Shown here: positions 4,441 to 37,173 of the stretch, piece after piece | How positions within the stretch are numbered: position 1 is the stretch's first letter | How the letters are laid out: every line of letters begins with the position of its first letter | From: Candidatus Bathyarchaeota archaeon | Lineage (GTDB): Archaea > Thermoproteota > Bathyarchaeia > TCS64 | Reading direction: 5' to 3' | NCBI GenBank assembly: GCA_043826455.1 | Contig: JBDRQD010000043.1 | Coordinates: 1 to 42,647, forward strand | Length of the DNA stretch: 42,647 nt | The notes under the pieces: model-generated | The model's database searches: none | Seen by the model: the letters and a program-made list of their open reading frames with translations, nothing else | What the model was told of the DNA's origin: nothing | Made by a program: the position numbers and the translations under genes

Positions 4441-4599
4441 TCACTGGGGCTTCCTGTAGTTCTTGCCCGGCTCCTTCTTGGCGTCCAGGGTGAGCTCATG
4501 GTTGTAGCACTCCACGCACAGCTCCCCCTTGAGGGGGATGTAGCCCGCGAAGAAGGACAGGGGCTTGCTGCACATTTTACAGTGTCTCATGCTGTCCAT
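4441..4599 (-). CDS. Zinc-finger microprotein (52 aa, two CxxC), not in the ORF track
   Basis: MDSMRHCKMCSKPLSFFAGYIPLKGELCVECYNHELTLDAKKEPGKNYRKPQ*; GC3-rich codons; AT-rich promoter-like region upstream (about 4610-4710). Confidence 0.75.
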   Translation of the reverse strand: MDSMRHCKMCSKPLSFFAGYIPLKGELCVECYNHELTLDAKKEPGKNYRKPQ

Positions 4600-6497: not shown

Positions 6498-6698
6498 GTG
6501 AGTTACTTGAATAAGTTCGACAAGTGTGAGCTTGAGCCTAACATCCTGTGCGACATGGAGTACAACTGCCTCAACTGCGCCAAACAGGAGAACCGGTGGG
6601 CCGAGATATGGATCAAGGGGCCGGCGAAGATAGTTGAGGCGGAGGCGGACGAGAAGTCAGAGGTGCGGGTGCCCGCCAAGAGCCTGTCCACACGCTAG
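6498..6698 (+). CDS. Small Cys-containing hypothetical protein (66 aa)
   Basis: ORF track; C-x6-C-x5-CxxC; GC3-biased codons; TATA-like sequence upstream. Confidence 0.6.
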   Translation: MSYLNKFDKCELEPNILCDMEYNCLNCAKQENRWAEIWIKGPAKIVEAEADEKSEVRVPAKSLSTR

Positions 6699-6819
6699 GA
6701 GACCCGTCTCAAGCCGTTTTTACGCCGATGATAGCCGGCGGCGCCGTCCGCGGACCATGAAAACTGTCAGCCCAGTCTACACACAAACCAACATAACCCG
6801 CTGCGGCGAAGTCAGCGTG

Positions 6820-7134
6820 ATGCATGTTCGCTGTAGAGCACTTTGTCGTATCGTTCTCACTGGGCTTGCTATTAGCGCTCCCGGTGTACTACTGGACGTC
6901 GACCACTGGTACTGCGTCGTCAAGGGGCTGGGTAACGCCAGATGGCTTCATTACAGTCTCGCGTCTGCTCCGGCTGTTCTTGTACTTCTCAGTGTCCTCT
7001 GGGGTCTTGTTGCTACTACATTTACGGTTGGATGGGGTGCTTTAGAGCCGGCGGTGGTGGAGGCCCCGGTGATCGAGTTTCCATTGCTGGGCTCGGGTGT
7101 CCGGGCCGCGGATGCTTCGCCCAGGGATGACTGA
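6820..7134 (+). CDS. Membrane protein, frame B of dual-coded locus: carries DxDH and RxxH motifs of YdjM-like metallohydrolases (104 aa)
   Basis: ATG at 6820 inside track ORF 6634..7134; IVLTGLAISAPGVLLDVDH...ARWLHYSL followed by a hydrophobic helix; GC3-rich codons in the centre and in the 7046-7134 tail. Confidence 0.6.
   Translation: MHVRCRALCRIVLTGLAISAPGVLLDVDHWYCVVKGLGNARWLHYSLASAPAVLVLLSVLWGLVATTFTVGWGALEPAVVEAPVIEFPLLGSGVRAADASPRDD
6824..7045 (+). CDS. Membrane protein, frame A of dual-coded locus: N-terminal His helix and C-terminal HxxxD helix (73 aa)
   Basis: MFAVEHFVVSFSLGLLLALP...GVLLLLHLRLDGVL; two hydrophobic helices corresponding to first and last YdjM motifs. Confidence 0.6.
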   Translation: MFAVEHFVVSFSLGLLLALPVYYWTSTTGTASSRGWVTPDGFITVSRLLRLFLYFSVSSGVLLLLHLRLDGVL

Positions 7135-9341
7135 CGGGGCCGCCGAGACAGCCAAAGCCCAGCGGCGGCTGCGGCGATCACACCTGATATGATTAGGGCC
7201 TGGTTGTTGTCCTCCGTGGGCCGTTCAGATACCTCCACGGTTCCAACCAGCTCGTTGTTGGCTTCATCCACTTCATGTACAGCGTCCTCCTCGTCCACGA
7301 CGACCCTGATGCTGTACGCTCCTGGGGCGTCTGGGGTCCAAGCGAACTCGACGCCTCTGGCCTCTCCTGGGGGTAGCGGCCCAAGCCTGGTTGTCCCTTT
7401 TTTCAGGTCGTCTATGTAGAGGCTCACGTTGAGGGCCTCGGACGGGGCCTCGCCCATGTTGGACACGTTGAACGGTATGGTTTGAGGGACGCCGGCCGTC
7501 GCCTCCGAGGGGATGGCTCCTATGATGGTGAGGTCAGGTAAGGCCACGGCGTAGACGGTGAGGGGCGCGGTTACTCCTCCTACCCCCACATGGTGGAGGC
7601 CCGGCGTGTCCAGGGACAGGGTGAAGGTGACGAGTCTGCTTTCCCCCGGGCCCAGGTGGACGGTTCTCAGGGCCTTCGGGGCCTGGTCCACTTCCAGGAC
7701 CAGGGTGAATAGCGCCTCGCTGTCACCTATGTTCGCCACCTCGACTGAGACGGTCACCTCTTCCCCCATGCGCACGGCGTCGCTGCTCAGGGCCAGGCTT
7801 CGGATGGCCGCCCCCTCGATGAGCGACGCGGCCCCGATGGTCAGAGGTGAGCCCTGTAGCTCGCCTCGCCCCAGCCGGGCCCACACGGCGCCCAGCTTTG
7901 TCCCCGTGTCTCTGCACTGGAGCCAGCCGGAGCTGTAGTGGTACAGGCCCAGGTTACCGACATCGAGGGTATTGTTGGCGTCGTATCTCAGCTCCAGGTA
8001 CAGGGGCCACGTCACGAGGTCTGGGTCCCCAACGCTCAGGTCGAGGAAGCCGCCCACCTGCCCGGGGGGAACATGTTCGTCGGGGTGCGGGTTGTCTGGG
8101 TACATGAAAAACAGGATGGGGACCGCATCAGACGCGTTGACCGTGATGTGTCCGCGTTGGCCAGGGAGTTCCAGGGGGCCGCCCCGTGCTGTCAGCTCCA
8201 CCCAGTCCGTGTGCCCCGCGAGGGGACTCAGTACGTCTACCAGTATCGTGGCCTGTCCGCTCAGCCCCTCCTCGTCTGTCACCGCGAGAGTCACGTTGTG
8301 GAGCCCCGGCGACAGGTACCTGTGGCTAACGGCTACCCCCTCAGCGGTTGAGCCGTCCCCCAGGTCCCACGTGTAGGAGGCGATGCGGCCCTCAGGGTCG
8401 TGGGACCTGTAGGCGCTGAAACCCACCAGCTGGCTCACGAAACACGATCTGCGCTGGGTCACCACCGGGACCGGGGGCCTGTTGGGGGGCTCCGCGACGT
8501 CCAGCAGCTCGACGCGTCTGCTTGTGAGGCCTATGTTGTCTACCACGGTCAGGACCACGGTGTACAGGCCGGGCGCGCCGTAGGTATGGGTGACCTCCTT
8601 GCCGCGGAGGACGGCGCCGTCGCCCAGGTCCCAGATGTACTCCACGATCATGCCGTCGGCGTCGTATGAGGCCGACGCGTCGAAGGTCACTGCCTCGCCT
8701 GCGACGGTTTTTGGCGGGTTGAAGCGGGCCACGGGGGGCACCAGGGATGGCGCCGGAGTGACGGTGCCCGCCTCGGAGAGGGTTAAGGTGCGGGAGACGC
8801 CGCCCACGTCCACGTTGAATGTGCCCGCAGGGATGGGGGAGGTGTCGTAGCTGATGGTGTACCTGCCATCGCCTCCGACCGTGACGGTGGTCCTGGCCGT
8901 CACCTCGGTGGATACCTTGCCTGCGCCGGGGGCCGCGTCGCCCTTCACCTGGACGTCGTATCTTCCCTGGAGGACACCGCTCTGGGATATGGTGGCCACA
9001 CCGTTCACAGCCTCCTTGCTGACGCTTATCCAGATGCCTATCCTGACGGCCAGGACTAGGTTTTTCACGTTGGTGGCCTTCACGGTGAAGGAGTTGGGCC
9101 TCTGGGGGACCTCGACGCCCTTCAGCTCGAGGAGGTACTTTCCGCCGCTGACCTGGAGGTCCTTCTTGAACCTGATCTGGACGATGACCTCCTCGCTGGG
9201 GGCGGCCTTCACGTCTACTGTTAACACGTCTCCGCGGACGGGTTTCTCGGGGTAGACGGATACGGATGTGACGCCGCATGAAGCGGTGCAGACGGATAGG
9301 AACAGTAGGGCCAGTGTCACCGTGGCCGTGAGGCGTCTCAC
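6951..9341 (-). CDS. Cell-surface protein: signal peptide, two PKD domains, two CARDB/Ig-like domains, C-terminal TM anchor
   Basis: FDASASYDADG...WDLGDG...HTYGAPGLYTVVLTV-type unit twice; V-x-E-x-x-E-x-NN CARDB end; ALIISGVIAAAAAGLWLSRR anchor. Confidence 0.88.
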   Translation of the reverse strand: MRRLTATVTLALLFLSVCTASCGVTSVSVYPEKPVRGDVLTVDVKAAPSEEVIVQIRFKKDLQVSGGKYLLELKGVEVPQRPNSFTVKATNVKNLVLAVRIGIWISVSKEAVNGVATISQSGVLQGRYDVQVKGDAAPGAGKVSTEVTARTTVTVGGDGRYTISYDTSPIPAGTFNVDVGGVSRTLTLSEAGTVTPAPSLVPPVARFNPPKTVAGEAVTFDASASYDADGMIVEYIWDLGDGAVLRGKEVTHTYGAPGLYTVVLTVVDNIGLTSRRVELLDVAEPPNRPPVPVVTQRRSCFVSQLVGFSAYRSHDPEGRIASYTWDLGDGSTAEGVAVSHRYLSPGLHNVTLAVTDEEGLSGQATILVDVLSPLAGHTDWVELTARGGPLELPGQRGHITVNASDAVPILFFMYPDNPHPDEHVPPGQVGGFLDLSVGDPDLVTWPLYLELRYDANNTLDVGNLGLYHYSSGWLQCRDTGTKLGAVWARLGRGELQGSPLTIGAASLIEGAAIRSLALSSDAVRMGEEVTVSVEVANIGDSEALFTLVLEVDQAPKALRTVHLGPGESRLVTFTLSLDTPGLHHVGVGGVTAPLTVYAVALPDLTIIGAIPSEATAGVPQTIPFNVSNMGEAPSEALNVSLYIDDLKKGTTRLGPLPPGEARGVEFAWTPDAPGAYSIRVVVDEEDAVHEVDEANNELVGTVEVSERPTEDNNQALIISGVIAAAAAGLWLSRRPRQSSLGEASAARTPEPSNGNSITGASTTAGSKAPHPTVNVVATRPQRTLRSTRTAGADARL

Positions 9342-30185: not shown

Positions 30186-32906
30186 TCACACCCACACACT
30201 CCTCAGGCTGTTGAGCCCTGTCTCGTACCTCATGCGCCTCAGCGCCGCCAGGCCCAGGCCCACGTCGGCTACGGCAGGCGCCACCCGAGGCTCGTAGGAG
30301 CCGTCCGGCAGCCGGGCGGCGGCCAGGTCAAGGTCGCATACGTATCCGCCCCCCGGCGTGTACCTGTGCTGGGCCCTGACTATCTGGAAGCTCCGCGCCT
30401 CCAGGCCATCCTTAAGACTCGTCACCGTCACCGTCTGGGGAGGCCTGTACCCAAGCTGGGCGCGGCCCGGGGCCCGGACCTGGGCCGTGACGACCGGGTT
30501 TTTCCTGTGGGCCAGGATGTTTGAAGCGACATACCCGGCGTAGTCCACATCGGTGATGGTCTTATCCACCAGACGGAGCGTCCGCTTACCGTAGGCAGCC
30601 TGGCTCGTGGAGTCGCTGGCCGTCCCCGCCTTCTCGTATCTGACGAACCTGAGGTTGTCGATGAGGAAGCCGCCGGTCCCCACCTGAGACATGTGCACTG
30701 CCTTGATCTGGACGTTGGCTATGACGCTCCCCGGGTTCCCCGTCTTGCTCATGGAGGCCAGGTCCATGGTGTACTCGTGCCAGGCAGCAGCGCTCTGAGG
30801 CGTGATCCCTGTCTCTTCATAGTAGTCGGTGACCCACAGCCAGCCGCCCCGCCAGATGCGCACCTCCAGGCTGTCTACGCTCAGCCCCGAGCCATACTTT
30901 AACTGGAACTTGAGCGAGTCGAAGCCGGTGATGTCTAGGTCCGGGAACTCGACCCGCATACGGTAGTAGCTCCCCGGGTTCGTGGTGTTGAAGTGGACGC
31001 TAGCCGAGCCCGCCACCTTGTCCCCTGTGTCGCTCTGCGGGTAGCCGCCGTCTGTGGGGTCCGGGCTGCTCCACCCCTCCACAGACTCGGTTAACGCGTC
31101 CCCGTCCGAGGGCTGTGTCTCCTCCTCGAACACGATGACCCGGACATCGTTGGTCAGCCTTGGGCTGCCCTTGATGGATTCCTTCACCTGGATGTCCAGG
31201 ATGTTGGGGGTGCCGCCGCCGCTGCCATCCGTGACGCTGAGGGGGCAGACGAAGACCCCGTACTTCTTGAACCTTACCGTTCCGCCCGTGTCCACCCAGA
31301 AGTTGGCCCCAGTCTCGCTCGAGGCGAAGGTGGCCGTCTCCGCCAGCTTCTCCAGCAGCGACCAGACGCCCTCCTGGTGGAACCTGTTGACGATGGCGCG
31401 GTTGGTGGTGTCCTTGTCCTGGTACAGCTCAGGCGACTCGTCCAGCATGTCGTCGACGATGGTGCTGATCTGGGTCGCCGAGGCGTACTCTTTGGAGAAG
31501 GTGCGCTCCAGCAGTATCTCGCCCAGGTCCTCGCACACAAGCTGAGTCACTGGGTTGTCCGGTTCCCCCAGGGTGAGCCTATCAATGACGCGCCCCGTGA
31601 ACAACTTACTCACCAGACTCTCAGACGCGGCCCCCAGGTACGCCATCACGACGCATCCCGGCCCCGCCCTCTGCGCACCGCTCAACGGACTCGATGTGTA
31701 TAAACGGTAAACCTCCGCGTCGGAAAAGGCCCCTATATAGATTCGTGTATCATCCAGACAGCCTGTTAAGGGGTGTATAGCCGCGTTGTACTTACCTAGA
31801 TACTTGGCGCGATTTACAGACGGAAACACCGGCACCCCGGACATGCTCAACTCCTCAATGAACACCCCGTTCCTGTAGAACCGGACCGTCTTAGCCGCAT
31901 AGTCACAGACCACGGCTACATGAGTCCATACGCCGTCACACCCAGCGAAGAAGTTGTTAGATTGGGCTGTACGGTAGGCTGTGCCGTCGGCGTACTGCCA
32001 TGTAAAGTGATACGAGCCGGGGTTCCTATAGCACCAGATGAACCCTATAGTCGAGCTCTGGGCACCGTCCGAGATGAGGGTCTGGTAGACGCCAGCGACG
32101 TAGCTAGGTTTGATCCATGTGGCGAAGGTGAGAGCGGTGCCGCTTAAGGCAAAGGCTACTGTCTGAACATAATCGTCCGACCCGTCGAAACTCAGAGCCT
32201 TCCCATATTTACCGTCAACCCATAATGGGCCATTATAAAGGTGCCCGGTGCGCCCCCACGGGCTAAGATCATAAGCCCTCGTATCCTGCCCCTCATCCAT
32301 GGGCAGCCAGAGGGCCAGCCTAGGGTAGGCAGGGTCCCGGAGCATGGTGAGACGGAGCCCTGAGACGGCGGTGGTGGTCACCAGGTCGGCCACAAGCTCC
32401 TCTATCTCCGCGGGCACCAGAGGCGGGTTCTTTAGGACACAAGCGTAGTCGTAGTCGATGACGGCCTGGGCGTAGACCTGGCTGCTCCGGGCGTACAACT
32501 TAACATACTTCACCGTCTTCCCGGAGGTTAGCTGGAGCCACACAGCCTCGAAGCTGGTCGGGGCATCAATCCACCCCAAGGAGGTGGACGACGCGTCAGT
32601 GTACTCCACCTCAACCTTGTACTGTGGCGCCGTGTCCCTGCCCCTGAGGCGAACCCTGAACACGGGATATGTGCTGGTGCTGAGGTTGAGGCCACTGATG
32701 TCTCGCCTCCAGCCACAGCCGTTGACCGCAGCACCCTCCGTCACAGCCATGGACGCGTAGTCCCCGGCGACGTCATTCACGTTACCGAAGCTCTCAGAAG
32801 CCGCCGACTGGAACTTGACCCAGAGGCTGCTCCTGAAACAATCGTCCAAGAACCCGGGCTCCTCGTAGAGCTCCACCCTGCACTGGGCCCAGATGGGAGT
32901 CGGCAC
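30186..32906 (-). CDS. Tail tip/hub-like protein with inserted LamG (concanavalin-like) domain and carbohydrate-binding-like modules
   Basis: Follows the tape measure; WLPMDEG..WVDGKYGKALSFDGSDDYV..WTHVAVV..FYRNG..GCLDDTRIY LamG; DSTSQAAYGKRT hub-like motif. Confidence 0.75.
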   Translation of the reverse strand: MPTPIWAQCRVELYEEPGFLDDCFRSSLWVKFQSAASESFGNVNDVAGDYASMAVTEGAAVNGCGWRRDISGLNLSTSTYPVFRVRLRGRDTAPQYKVEVEYTDASSTSLGWIDAPTSFEAVWLQLTSGKTVKYVKLYARSSQVYAQAVIDYDYACVLKNPPLVPAEIEELVADLVTTTAVSGLRLTMLRDPAYPRLALWLPMDEGQDTRAYDLSPWGRTGHLYNGPLWVDGKYGKALSFDGSDDYVQTVAFALSGTALTFATWIKPSYVAGVYQTLISDGAQSSTIGFIWCYRNPGSYHFTWQYADGTAYRTAQSNNFFAGCDGVWTHVAVVCDYAAKTVRFYRNGVFIEELSMSGVPVFPSVNRAKYLGKYNAAIHPLTGCLDDTRIYIGAFSDAEVYRLYTSSPLSGAQRAGPGCVVMAYLGAASESLVSKLFTGRVIDRLTLGEPDNPVTQLVCEDLGEILLERTFSKEYASATQISTIVDDMLDESPELYQDKDTTNRAIVNRFHQEGVWSLLEKLAETATFASSETGANFWVDTGGTVRFKKYGVFVCPLSVTDGSGGGTPNILDIQVKESIKGSPRLTNDVRVIVFEEETQPSDGDALTESVEGWSSPDPTDGGYPQSDTGDKVAGSASVHFNTTNPGSYYRMRVEFPDLDITGFDSLKFQLKYGSGLSVDSLEVRIWRGGWLWVTDYYEETGITPQSAAAWHEYTMDLASMSKTGNPGSVIANVQIKAVHMSQVGTGGFLIDNLRFVRYEKAGTASDSTSQAAYGKRTLRLVDKTITDVDYAGYVASNILAHRKNPVVTAQVRAPGRAQLGYRPPQTVTVTSLKDGLEARSFQIVRAQHRYTPGGGYVCDLDLAAARLPDGSYEPRVAPAVADVGLGLAALRRMRYETGLNSLRSVWV

Positions 32907-33526
32907 TAGCCTCCCCTCCTCATACGCTCCTCGAGACGCGGCCCCAGCTCACGGAGCCACTGGTCCACCTCCAGGCCGCTGGACGGCTGACGCTCGAAGG
33001 TGACGAAGATGGGTCCCAGGTGGGTCTGAGAGGCCGGGACCACGTACTCTCCCCGGTGCAGCATGTATAGGCCCGTCCGGTTCACAGGGCCTCCCGCCTG
33101 CATGCTCTGAATACGGCTGTAGACCATGGCACCTGCCGCTATGGCTAGGGGGATAAGCCACCACTGGCCTGAGAGGGTGGTGAGGATGGCCTGGGCTGCC
33201 GAGGCCGCCGCTGTGTTCTCCCGGAGCCTCCTGGTGAGGGCGGTCAGGTTGCTGACCACCTGGATCATGCTCATGAAGCTCGTCAACAGCGCCACCGGGT
33301 TCATATCGTTGATGGCCCGGCTCGTCTGCGTGACAGCGAGCCTGGTCGAGTTCAGAGACCTGAGAGTAAGGGACAGCGTAGCCAGGGTGCCCCCACTCTG
33401 AGCCTGCACCCCCTGAAGCGCAGCCGAGGCCTGGCTGGCGCTCTGGGCAGCCGCGTTGGCCGAGGCCGCGGCCTCTCCCAGCCCCGTTACCTGAACATTG
33501 TACTCAAGGTCCACACGGTTCGCCAC
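32906..33526 (-). CDS. Very short tape-measure-like protein (206 aa)
   Basis: Ala/Ser-rich helical body; C-terminal MQAGGPVNRTGLYMLHRGEYVVP motif typical of TMP ends; position after chaperones. Confidence 0.72.
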   Translation of the reverse strand: MANRVDLEYNVQVTGLGEAAASANAAAQSASQASAALQGVQAQSGGTLATLSLTLRSLNSTRLAVTQTSRAINDMNPVALLTSFMSMIQVVSNLTALTRRLRENTAAASAAQAILTTLSGQWWLIPLAIAAGAMVYSRIQSMQAGGPVNRTGLYMLHRGEYVVPASQTHLGPIFVTFERQPSSGLEVDQWLRELGPRLEERMRRGG

Positions 33527-33903
33527 TACACCACTCCCGCAGCCCTGTCTAGCATCTCACGGCCCACACTCAGACGCCCCGCCAGGACGCCCTGAAGCAG
33601 GAAGGGGCGGGCCGGCATCCTGCTGGTGCCGTCGTGGACGTGCCGAGCATAGTCCACCTCTCGCCCCGTAAGAGGATTCACGTGGCCCCCACCCCCAGCC
33701 ACCAGCTTAGCAGCTAGGGGACCCGGACGCTCAACACGGATCGAGCCGCGCAGCGCTCCGGTGCGGACGGGGCAGAAGGCCCGGGCGAACTCCAGCATCG
33801 CGGGCACCTCCAGGGCCAGGTCAGCGGCCTCCTGGATGCTCTGAGGGATAAGGGACAGCTCGGCCCCTAGGTCCTCCAGACGCAGCGTTTTACTTACCTT
33901 CAC
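33526..33903 (-). CDS. HK97 gp10-like neck/tail-completion protein
   Basis: CPVRTGALRGSI, YARHVHDGTSRMPARPFL. Confidence 0.85.
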   Translation of the reverse strand: MKVSKTLRLEDLGAELSLIPQSIQEAADLALEVPAMLEFARAFCPVRTGALRGSIRVERPGPLAAKLVAGGGGHVNPLTGREVDYARHVHDGTSRMPARPFLLQGVLAGRLSVGREMLDRAAGVV

Positions 33904-34112
33904 CTTGCTCCCCTCCTGAGCCTATTAAGCTCCTCCTCCAGCCGCCTCTTCTCCCGGTCCTGCACGCCAGCCACCGCCTCCAAGTAGACGCCCAGCCTCT
34001 CCACGAACACCGCAGGCTGGACCGCCAACTGGTCAAGCGTCCAGCCCGTGGCCACACAGAGGGCCACATCCTCCGTCAGTGGGCTCGGCTTCCCTCGCTT
34101 CACAGCCTCCAC
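33900..34112 (-). CDS. Tail assembly chaperone extension (gpT-like), probably made as a -1 frameshift fusion
   Basis: GWTLDQL..QP motif; in the -1 frame of the upstream chaperone, directly after A AAA AAA. Confidence 0.7.
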   Translation of the reverse strand: MEAVKRGKPSPLTEDVALCVATGWTLDQLAVQPAVFVERLGVYLEAVAGVQDREKRRLEEELNRLRRGAR

Positions 34113-34432
34113 TATTTTTTTCGCTCATCAACCGTGACGCCGTTGATCCGCAGGCAGTAGGAGATCATCTCCTCCACCAGCTCAGGCGGCTCAAGGCCGT
34201 GGACCGCCTCCACTGTGATGGGCAGAGACTGCCCCTCCTCATCAACCAGGTCCCACCCCTGGAGGCACCCGACCAGCATCAGGTCGTTCAGGGCCCACGG
34301 GTCCACTTCAGGCTCAAGCCCCGAGGCCCCCCTCTCCCACCTGGTAGCCTTCCTGAGGGCCTCCTGCTTCATCCCGTAGGTCCACGTCCTGAACGCCAGT
34401 TTATGGCCTCTGATCTCGACTTCATGCCTCAT
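34112..34432 (-). CDS. Tail assembly chaperone (gpG-like)
   Basis: Between tube and TMP genes; GWDLVDEEGQSLPITVEAV motif; ends ERKK on a slippery A7. Confidence 0.75.
   Translation of the reverse strand: MRHEVEIRGHKLAFRTWTYGMKQEALRKATRWERGASGLEPEVDPWALNDLMLVGCLQGWDLVDEEGQSLPITVEAVHGLEPPELVEEMISYCLRINGVTVDERKK
34115..34121 (-). other. Candidate -1 programmed ribosomal frameshift heptamer A AAA AAA
   Basis: Minus strand CGA AAA AAA TAG TGG; a -1 slip reads AAA AAA ATA GTG GAG into the next ORF. Confidence 0.75.
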
Positions 34433-34438
34433 GGCTCA

Positions 34439-35320
34439 TCACGTGAAGTTGTGCTCCAGGTAGCCCCCCGTGAACTCTACGCGGCACGCCACCAGGTCCT
34501 CTGGCTTGATTATGGGGTCCACCAGCCGCATCTTCCCCTTACTGAACTGAAGATACTTCGAGTTAGGCAGCACCAGCTTCAGGTAGAGCTCCGTCTGGTT
34601 GATCAGGTAGCTGAGGTACGTGCCGTCCTGGAGGTTCATGGTGAGCCTCACATCACAGAGGCGCTCCATCTCCTCCAGTCCCTGGAGTTGCTTGGTGGCC
34701 GTGCTGGTGAACACATGGACGGCGCTCAGCTGGTTATCTACCCTGAACTCCCAGTCCGTGACGTCCGGTATAGTCGTCCAGTCTGTGCCGTTGGTGCTCA
34801 CCTGGACGTAGCAGTCCGACCACTCCCAGACGGTGCCGGGCAGCGCCCCGTAGCTGTGTATGGTGGTGGTCTTGGTGCCGTAGAGCTTGCCGATCATCTC
34901 AGCCGACCACACCACAGGCTCCCCTATGCTGCACTGGACAGATAGGACGTCCGCCTTCAGCCCCGTCCAGTAAAGATAAAGCTGGTTGGAGGCGTCCCGG
35001 TACAGCTTGGTCTCCGCGAAGAAGTTGTACCCACCGAGGATGAACTTCTGGAAGTAGTCGCCCAGCTGACCCTGAAGCCACCTGAGCCCAAGCTTCACGT
35101 TCTGGCGCCGGGACAGAACCGTCAGGGGTCTGCCCTCGCTGCCTCCGTCCCGGAGCACGAACACCCGGTTTAGCTCAGGGTCTAGGCTCGGCTTCATCTC
35201 AGTGACGTAGCCGACCCTGTACAGAGTGGTGGGAGTAGCCCCAGGGCTGCCCCCGTAGCTGGCCTCGTCGTAGGGCTTGTGCCCGAACGCGACCTGATCC
35301 TTACCCTTGTACCTAACCAT
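34439..35320 (-). CDS. Major tail tube protein
   Basis: EASYGGSP N-terminal motif, beta-rich, WEFRVDNQL; between terminator and chaperone genes. Confidence 0.75.
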   Translation of the reverse strand: MVRYKGKDQVAFGHKPYDEASYGGSPGATPTTLYRVGYVTEMKPSLDPELNRVFVLRDGGSEGRPLTVLSRRQNVKLGLRWLQGQLGDYFQKFILGGYNFFAETKLYRDASNQLYLYWTGLKADVLSVQCSIGEPVVWSAEMIGKLYGTKTTTIHSYGALPGTVWEWSDCYVQVSTNGTDWTTIPDVTDWEFRVDNQLSAVHVFTSTATKQLQGLEEMERLCDVRLTMNLQDGTYLSYLINQTELYLKLVLPNSKYLQFSKGKMRLVDPIIKPEDLVACRVEFTGGYLEHNFT

Positions 35321-35720
35321 AATACAGCACCTCTACTCGACACTGACTTCTGAACAGCGGAGGCCTGAGGCTTCCCTCGTCAAGGTCACGCCATGAGGAG
35401 ACGCTCAGCGCCTCAAGGCCTCCACCTGGATCAGTACACTTGGAGTGGAGTATCCGGTCCACCTCCTGGAGCATCTCCCACCGCTGAGCCGCGTCGCCCC
35501 GGGCCCAGGCGTCAACAAAGTACACTGCCTCGAACCGACGCTCCGCCTGCGCCGGGTTCTCGCTGAACCCCACCTGACGGGGCTGCGTGAGCACGTGGCT
35601 CACCACCACCTGAGGAAACTCAGCCTTCTCCATGAGCCAGTCCGCGCTAAACGCAGGCTTGTAACCCAGGCCCCAGCCGCCCCCCAGGAGCTCCAGGAGC
35701 GTCACCTTGGGGTCCGTCAA
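35313..35720 (-). CDS. Tail terminator/completion protein
   Basis: FPQVVV..., YFVDAW, EVDRILH pattern; position before the tube gene. Confidence 0.65.
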   Translation of the reverse strand: MTDPKVTLLELLGGGWGLGYKPAFSADWLMEKAEFPQVVVSHVLTQPRQVGFSENPAQAERRFEAVYFVDAWARGDAAQRWEMLQEVDRILHSKCTDPGGGLEALSVSSWRDLDEGSLRPPLFRSQCRVEVLYYG

Positions 35721-36103
35721 CTCATCGCCCTCTCCCCGTACACCTTACGGTAGGCCGTGGTGTGCTCCAAGCCCGTGACGTGGTAGCGGACGCCGTCCAC
35801 CTCCACCTCATACCGCTCCTCATTCACCGGTGCCCAGACGGGCAGCAGCACCTCCAGGTCCGCCCTCTTAACCTCCCCCGGCGGGAGCCGGAGCTCGCCT
35901 GGAGACAGCTTCACCATTGCCTTCACGGTCAAGGACGTCTCCAGGTAGACTGGCTGCCCGTAGGAATCACGGCTTGAGAGTGTCTGGTGGACTACCACCA
36001 CGTCTACGCCCCTTAGCCGGGCAAGCTCCTCGAAGCGCAGCGCCTCAGGATTAGGCATCATGACGTCGAAGCCCTCACCGAACTGCTTGTACATGAAGCT
36101 CAT
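35717..36103 (-). CDS. Head-closure/head-tail adaptor protein
   Basis: RDSYGQP, VEVDGVRYHV motifs; position. Confidence 0.68.
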   Translation of the reverse strand: MSFMYKQFGEGFDVMMPNPEALRFEELARLRGVDVVVVHQTLSSRDSYGQPVYLETSLTVKAMVKLSPGELRLPPGEVKRADLEVLLPVWAPVNEERYEVEVDGVRYHVTGLEHTTAYRKVYGERAMS

Positions 36104-37173
36104 GACTCGTACAGCCCGACCTTGGTTACGTTGGTCACGTTGGCCCCTTGGTTGACCGCTGAGCCGGTGACGCCGAATATCTGGCCGGGGCCGATGACCA
36201 CGTGGTCAGTGTATCCCTGAAGGTCGATGCCGTTGGGGGTCACACTCTGTCCATCGATGATGAGGCTGCTCAAGTTGATCCTGAAACACTTGTTGGCGGA
36301 GCCGTCGTCGTCTATGTCTATGGCGTCCCCGCCTGTCCTGTAGAATATGTGCCCCGTGCAGACGATGGACTCGACTCTACGATACATCTTGAAGCCGACG
36401 CCCACCGTGTTGAAGTGCTGGTTGTTGTGGAGTTGGCAGAGCCGCACCTTGCCCTCAGTCCCGTCCAGGGCGCCTATCTCTATGTCCCGGTTGTTGGCGT
36501 AGAAGTAGTTGTTCAGGAAGTAGCTCTTCAGTATCACCCCAGAGCCCACTCCTCCCTCTAGCCTGATACCGGCCTGGGCCGCGTTTTCGAACAGGCAGTC
36601 CTGGACCCACAGGTTCCACGAGTCCCCGGTGCTCTCCACGTGGAAGGCGTGCCTCTTGGCCTGGTTGATATAGACGCGGTCCATGTGCCAGTCTGATACC
36701 CGGTCCAGGTGCACAGTGTCCCGGTCCCCTGAGCCGGGGTAGAGGGTCATGTCGTAGAGGCCACCGAAGTGAACCGCGTCCCCGACTTTGCCGATGGCGA
36801 TACAGTGGACGCCGTTGGCCACGTTGAACCTGATCATGGTCCCGTAGTCCAGGTCGTGCCAGCACATCCCGGCCCCGTACAGGTGCACCGGGTATACCTC
36901 GTCCAATGTCCACGGCTGCGTCTCAGTGACCTTGCCCTTGGGCAGCCAGACGGCTCCACCCGTGTCAGCGTACACGTCATCGATGGCCTGCTGGACGTTG
37001 CCGGCGGCCCTCTCCCAGATGTTGCCCCGGCTGTTCACTATCCGGGTTCTGTCCCTGATGAAGGCCTCGGCGCCGGGGCCGAGCCTGGCCTCCAGGGCGT
37101 CAACAAGTGTATCGTAGTGGAGGTAGGTTATGGAGTCCGGGGGATACGGCTTGATGAACGCAGGCAACATCAT
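36100..37173 (-). CDS. Right-handed beta-helix (pectin-lyase-like) protein, tailspike/fibre-like
   Basis: VQQAIDD...GGAVWLPKG...VHLYGAG start and N-x-F-x-x-N repeats; ATGA overlap with the next gene. Confidence 0.78.
   Translation of the reverse strand: MMLPAFIKPYPPDSITYLHYDTLVDALEARLGPGAEAFIRDRTRIVNSRGNIWERAAGNVQQAIDDVYADTGGAVWLPKGKVTETQPWTLDEVYPVHLYGAGMCWHDLDYGTMIRFNVANGVHCIAIGKVGDAVHFGGLYDMTLYPGSGDRDTVHLDRVSDWHMDRVYINQAKRHAFHVESTGDSWNLWVQDCLFENAAQAGIRLEGGVGSGVILKSYFLNNYFYANNRDIEIGALDGTEGKVRLCQLHNNQHFNTVGVGFKMYRRVESIVCTGHIFYRTGGDAIDIDDDGSANKCFRINLSSLIIDGQSVTPNGIDLQGYTDHVVIGPGQIFGVTGSAVNQGANVTNVTKVGLYES

Follow-up and report, generated by a model that had tools for sequence, protein, structure and literature searches.

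Two overlapping reading frames of a Bathyarchaeia locus probably encode the chains of a YdjM-like membrane metalloprotein

The window analyzed here, a stretch of 42,647 nt from a Candidatus Bathyarchaeota archaeon (contig JBDRQD010000043.1, assembly GCA_043826455.1), carries a twin start, ATGCATG, on its forward strand (6820–6826, +). Two stop-free frames open from it 4 nt apart. Frame B (6820–7134, +; 104 aa, TGA stop) encodes a helix, D26-x-D28-H29, a loop, R41-x-x-H44, a second helix and a dispensable tail. Frame A (6824–7045, +; 73 aa, TAG stop) is wholly nested in frame B at +1 and encodes H6, a helix, a basic loop, another helix and H66-x-x-x-D70; the shared stretch (6820–7045) comprises 226 bases. 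Candidate metal ligands lie in both frames, namely His6 of A (6839–6841, +), one or more residues of the D-x-D-H motif of B (DVDH, 6895–6906, +), which matches the motif of single-chain YdjM proteins, His44 in R-x-x-H-x-S of B (RWLHYS, 6940–6957, +), and H66 and D70 in H-x-x-x-D of A (HLRLD, 7019–7033, +). An initial annotation had described these twin starts, frame lengths and motif positions, and all were reproduced. Upstream of its ATG, the B frame stays open to 6634 in the window genome, an extension that is not conserved among relatives. A PKD/CARDB surface-protein ORF (6951–9341, −) has a C-terminal run-on (6951–7134, −) antisense to the B tail and the second helix of A, creating a local triple overlap in the window genome. 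This overlap is incidental: the homologous gene ends near the B stop at locus L012 and is not adjacent to the locus in L017, L018 and L020.

Within the overlap, the third codon positions of B are the second codon positions of A. Across B codons 1–75, third-position T reaches 0.44 vs 0.09 in the genome and GC3 is 0.44 vs 0.805, genome figures being drawn from ORFs of at least 400 aa. Past the A stop, in the B-only tail (7046–7134, +), codon bias is as usual (GC3 0.79), as the initial annotation had claimed. Its second claim, that frame A uses rare Leu codons, also holds (10 of 16 are TTG, CTA or TTA, vs ~18% together genome-wide). We estimated chance expectation by resampling B synonymous codons 100,000 times, with only B taken as coding. 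With genome codon usage, 1.3% of the resampled sequences kept the +1 frame free of stops, and with uniform usage 0.2%; one that was open and also carried H6, H66 and D70 arose at 4e-5 (4 of 100,000). The observed hydrophobicity of A was reached in 0 of 100,000. The reverse null, with only A coding, left B open in 12–32%; an open B with its D, D, H and H appeared in 1.6% and 0.3%, and these residues plus hydrophobicity in 0 and 1 of 100,000.

Both frames are present in a same-genus genome at 81% nucleotide identity. Scans returned 10 further loci, one of which (L019) ends at a contig edge; the other nine and the window represent seven distinct haplotypes. All seven are of the Bathyarchaeia type and 85–98% identical; across their first 210 nt, A and B are both free of stops and the third frame has 1–3. 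The twin start is retained at 10 of 11 loci including the window. At the remaining locus (L017, copy at 2392–2710) A starts with GTG, and a 1-nt insertion near the A end removes the final Asp, carries A on into the frame of the B tail and ends B at 73 aa; this is a decaying copy or a sequencing error. In L018 the A stop is gone and HxxxD is retained. Among close relatives, each of 67 variant alleles was scored singly against the majority base: synonymous changes number 35 in A (expectation 28%) and 20 in B (expectation 26%), and none creates a stop in either frame. The initial annotation had proposed to test whether both frames stay open with suppressed synonymous variation. Both do stay open; synonymous variants exceed expectation in A and not in B, so that the allele test points to selection on A and says nothing about B. 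One RNA library contains two short contigs of a 90–95% identical relative over 6860–7144 and none over the flanks; their strand and level are unreadable, and DNA carry-over is possible. A paired indel in these contigs (6924/6932) falls in a variable loop and is probably an alignment effect.

These comparisons bear on the suspicion that the double frame is an assembly error, or a decayed single-frame gene with two compensating indels. The locus is known from metagenome assemblies, and L017 does have a real or erroneous indel. However, the same phase recurs in the seven haplotypes, in two other DNA runs and in a second class, and these independent loci refute such an origin. A contig from what may be the source run shows an identical sequence, and in two other DNA runs the sequences of relatives are free of indels across 6820–7045. 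Relatives keep both frames instead of bringing the motifs together in one fused frame, and neither frame is routinely interrupted by stops. A repaired single frame would also be too short, with 56 nt from the first His to the Asp vs 84 nt in single-chain YdjM. We regard this explanation as hardly credible, and take the double frame to be a genuine, confirmed feature of the DNA.

A B-profile search of 1.84 billion representative proteins gave 24 matches, one of which (P0025) is a repeat protein and a spurious match. D26, D28, H29 and H44 are invariant in all 23 aligned B sequences, at identities down to 24%. Many distant homologs are stand-alone proteins of 74–90 aa that lack the tail, and none of the B-profile matches has all four motifs on one chain. 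Several A sequences are already gene calls in public collections. In the A alignment (47–93% identity), H6, H66 and D70 are invariant in 10 of 10 sequences, and independently called A proteins at 47–56% identity retain them. Partial or mixed-frame calls (P0003, P0040 and P0041) were excluded from alignments A4 and A7, and further candidates (G074, G093, G608/L024, L052–L054, L056 and L058) were dropped on inspection as spurious matches. All five tested A proteins allow the D, D and H of B in the −1 frame, and three allow H44 as aligned. Conversely, in a protein-only “shadow” test, residue pairs in all 15 distant B proteins are compatible with H6, H66 and D70 in the +1 frame. Of the 73 columns, two alone (6 and 66) are His-compatible in 90% of rows; at B71, 11 of 21 rows have G and 10 have R, the alternation expected of xGA codons. 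The shadow test is suggestive and not decisive, because the single-chain control family also gives 3 His-compatible columns and 1 Asp-compatible column, including an HxxxD-spaced pair. In the same control the +1 frame has 5–12 stops (10 of 10 genes), although these genes are AT-rich and the comparison is not like for like.

The arrangement recurs in another class of the same phylum. There, one genome (G689) contains two paralogs with the same +1 overlap in a tighter register, each combining a B frame (DxDH, RxxH) with a +1 frame A (H...SHxxxD, then a stop). Their starts are 5–8 nt apart, downstream of GGAGGA. Between the paralogs, 46 of 235 nt have changed (23/13/10 across B codon positions) with frames and ligands intact, and the chance null for a double frame with ligands is 1e-5. 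Profiles of G689 B and the window B family align with a probability of 92%; those of the A families do not align significantly. Directly downstream of one copy lies a long CT dinucleotide run (L023, ~1888–1950).

With these data we weighed the reading that one frame only is a gene, the other being an open hydrophobic shadow or the DNA being retained for its role as an RNA or a binding site. Hydrophobic codons read out of frame do tend to be rich in F, L, S, Y, C and W, the reverse null often leaves B open, and the shadow test yields false positives. Against this, the nulls with ligands and hydrophobicity lie at or below 1e-5 to 4e-5, motifs are retained in both families at low identity, and the second class shows the arrangement in a different register. 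RNA structure was rejected as the cause of conservation, as 0 of 69 pairs covary, a separate structure test gives z −1.44 and Rfam gives no match above threshold. We consider a single gene very unlikely, and selection on both frames highly likely.

The initial annotation had compared the locus with the YdjM family (PF04307), whose function we take to be putative. Neither window peptide matches a Pfam or PHROG family, and scans of the peptides against Pfam, NCBIfam and PHROG returned nothing informative. The PF04307 cut-off of 29 bits is reached by neither half. The best half is a B homolog (P0032, 20 bits), which matches positions 30–92 at E 5e-4; the best Pfam value for A comes from G689 A (positions 71–108, E 0.21). 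A widened B profile recovers a single-chain protein (E 0.0097) that is itself a true YdjM (34.6 bits). Its family (A13), found in 10 of 51 genomes, has invariant H55, D83, D85, H86, R98, H101, H135 and D139, placed by a structure model (pLDDT 88) at the ends of four consecutive helices. B aligns with this family in hhalign at E 5.6e-4 (probability 30%, 28 ungapped columns) and fails to match a YdjM alignment of greater diversity. For A, neither alignment gives a significant profile match, and its resemblance to YdjM is one of motif alone. At the sequence level, B thus appears weakly homologous to the middle of single-chain YdjM.

The motif order is the same in both architectures: H, D(xDH), H(S) and HxxxD are all present at four helix ends, and the 18 residues from D26 to H44 equal the D83–H101 spacing. 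However, the split locus distributes them over two chains, helices 1 and 4 on A and helices 2 and 3 on B. No single polypeptide of the locus carries all YdjM motifs, and the extra helices of single-chain members are missing. Given the motifs and the weak B match, together with sub-threshold scores and the lack of a complete single chain, we describe the locus as encoding a YdjM-like core outside family membership. The name “hydrolase” is inherited from an uncharacterized family. The window genome has no single-chain YdjM above the Pfam cut-off and two weak matches, and the genomes G004 and G689 hold the split locus plus single-chain members. A PDB sequence search with the B profile and with single-chain YdjM produced no genuine match, and a fold search with two single-chain models (pLDDT 63 and 88) gave no Z of 8 or above and no Foldseek E below 0.001, so that a link to zinc phospholipase C is conjectural; neither search found a solved relative of the fold. 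The “YdjM” in the part of 10.1101/2024.07.01.601547 available to us is YjdM, which is unrelated.

As the initial annotation had suggested, we modeled A and B together, adding two zinc ions. The complex scored 0.66, compared with 0.01 for the best of three controls. In a benchmark, a score this high was attained by 116 of 157 solved complexes and by 2 of 215 mismatched pairs, counts that apply only roughly to the present case. Model runs share at least 87% of contacts, and partner pLDDT is at least 71. The model passes with the candidate ligands A6, A66, A70, B26 and B44 in its interface, and was returned as a score and contacts, with no zinc positions. The best contact pairs (B18–A14, B15–A18, B62–A55 and B66–A52) are antiparallel, a register that would bring D26 near H6 and H44 near the C-terminal motif of A. 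A pass does not show binding, because two parts of a divided gene may score well simply by resembling a fold that the predictor has learned. The K+R distribution (2.6 in the A loop, 0 and 1.0 at the A ends, 1.9 at the B N-terminus and 1.2 in the B loop) fits the A loop inside and the B loop outside, a modest signal by which the site would face out. We think it very probable that A and B form a heterodimer.

An alternative already raised in the initial annotation is double (−1/+1) recoding, in which translation starts in A, shifts −1 into B and returns +1 to A. The product would have two helices and all ligands, and could form an antiparallel homodimer. Such a path exists, as the motifs follow each other 1-2-3-4 along the DNA. 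However, within 6800–7140 there is no X-XXY-YYZ heptamer, and no covarying RNA structure was seen; programmed −1 frameshift genes would have both a slippery heptamer and a stimulating structure. The portions to be skipped remain open and hydrophobic in both frames, each frame has its own conserved start, and B additionally has its own tail and stop. In a recoded chain H6 and D26 would sit at opposite ends of one helix. Recoding is disfavored, and we judge it highly improbable. The split into two overprinted peptides, also put forward in the initial annotation, is supported by the conserved frames, the partition of the motifs, the weak homology of B to YdjM and the passing model.

Expression of both frames may rely on a single promoter. 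A conserved promoter-like element of 18 nt (6779–6796, +; −41 to −24 relative to the B ATG) keeps a constant offset in 8 of 8 loci checked, though the spacer diverges. In the window genome it has a single exact match, and near matches show no excess (9 vs 7 in the control), which ruled it out as a regulon site. Archaeal promoter spacing places the transcript start near the B ATG for such an element, so that both ATGs fall inside leaderless range. We infer that the element is positioned as an archaeal BRE/TATA with a leaderless transcript.

Genomic context varies. Sugar-nucleotide genes lie upstream in the window and in L011, L012 and L020, and L016–L018 have different neighbors. The locus was found in 2 of 71 genomes of the family, in 2 of 401 of the class and in 1 of 62 of the G689 class, and many of these genomes are incomplete; it is rare, patchy and movable. 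Viral contigs, plasmids and phages gave no match with the queries used. A Cys-rich ORF of 66 aa (6498–6698, +; no Pfam or PHROG match) precedes the locus in the window, and was also seen in L011 and, at 62 aa, in G004, and not at L016–L018. Elsewhere in the window, a 52-aa ORF with two CxxC motifs and no Pfam match (4441–4599, −) lies between sugar-nucleotide genes, and a cluster of co-oriented ORFs (30186–37173, −), two of which match PHROG tail and neck families, is a partial head-tail provirus-like module.

Taken together, we interpret the locus as a self-contained dual-coding unit that probably specifies a two-chain YdjM-like metalloprotein, most likely a membrane metallohydrolase. One mRNA, probably leaderless, would be initiated at both starts 4 nt apart, yielding two helical-hairpin membrane peptides. 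A (H-helix-loop-helix-HxxxD) would have both ends at one membrane face, and B (helix-DxDH-loop-H-helix) would be inverted, with its loop at the face holding the A ends. In the modeled antiparallel register, A and B would pack as a four-helix YdjM-like core and jointly supply at least five His/Asp ligands to one metal site. The activity may be that of a membrane metallohydrolase on a lipid or other phosphoester substrate. A hydrolase role for such a YdjM-like site seems likely to us, and we consider it unlikely that A and B are made and bound together for another purpose, as a metal sensor or buffer or with one peptide holding its partner in check. That reading draws on the lack of any YdjM activity in the literature we found, the reduction of the split core relative to single-chain YdjM, and the patchy, movable distribution. 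Yet the complete YdjM ligand set is retained with equal D-to-H spacing, and one single-chain YdjM matches Zn_dep_PLPC at E 0.002.

The two-chain core may have originated when two compensating frameshifts flanked helices 2–3 in a single-chain gene and the middle part acquired a start of its own. The early product would have been a pair resembling M.EcoHK31I. Later deletions could have slid helix 1 over 2 and helix 4 over 3, a compaction eased since shifted hydrophobic codons read as F, L, S, Y, C and W. From the first His to the Asp, distances are 84 nt in the single chain, 56 in the window and 41 in G689; from the second His to the last, 102, 70 and 37 nt. These spacings fit a compaction series and give no order of events, and A may have been overprinted independently in the two classes.

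To our knowledge, long same-strand overlaps are mostly viral, and a molecular reason is at hand for few of the cellular cases. At this locus such a reason suggests itself: the two frames would carry complementary halves of one site, making both indispensable, with a single mRNA serving the pair. Two-chain overlap of this general kind has been described before. According to the portion of the report available to us, M.EcoHK31I is a soluble two-chain DNA methyltransferase made from overlapping frames, with alpha as the catalytic domain and beta as a smaller nested chain (PMC2836561). As there, one chain (A) is encoded inside the second frame of the other (B). Unlike in that account, the starts are 4 nt apart, the frames are co-extensive, candidate ligands lie on both chains, and the transmembrane helices of both share the same bases. 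Other bacterial cases, as far as the accessible text goes, comprise GndA, a nested same-strand frameshifted ORF translated from one mRNA (PMC11230408), and AUGUG/GUGUG sequences, in which adjacent start codons can open two frames (PMC9841429). These bacterial ORFs, as presented there, are not halves of one fold, and compared with AUGUG/GUGUG the split-locus starts are 4–8 nt apart and probably leaderless in Bathyarchaeia. A literature search, with most subscription papers outside its reach, found no description of the locus or of co-extensive overprinted halves of a membrane enzyme. The initial annotation's view that the arrangement was undescribed thus needs narrowing: two-chain overlap is a known principle, and what appears new, within the literature searched, is the co-extensive overprinting of transmembrane helices with shared ligands.

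We lean towards a broader view, in which these loci represent an archaeal membrane metalloenzyme family in at least two classes of one phylum. Its catalytic core would be written twice over ~230 bases, each base serving a helix per chain, with an active site that exists only across both frames and surviving loci that record how a single-chain gene was compacted. Since public collections list the halves as separate unnamed or “hypothetical” proteins, genes of this sort can readily be overlooked. The locus provides a minimal model (73 + 77 residues) of the uncharacterized YdjM core and a native setting for testing two-frame initiation in archaea at the level of one mRNA, and the loci offer a series for tracing the evolution of overprinting.
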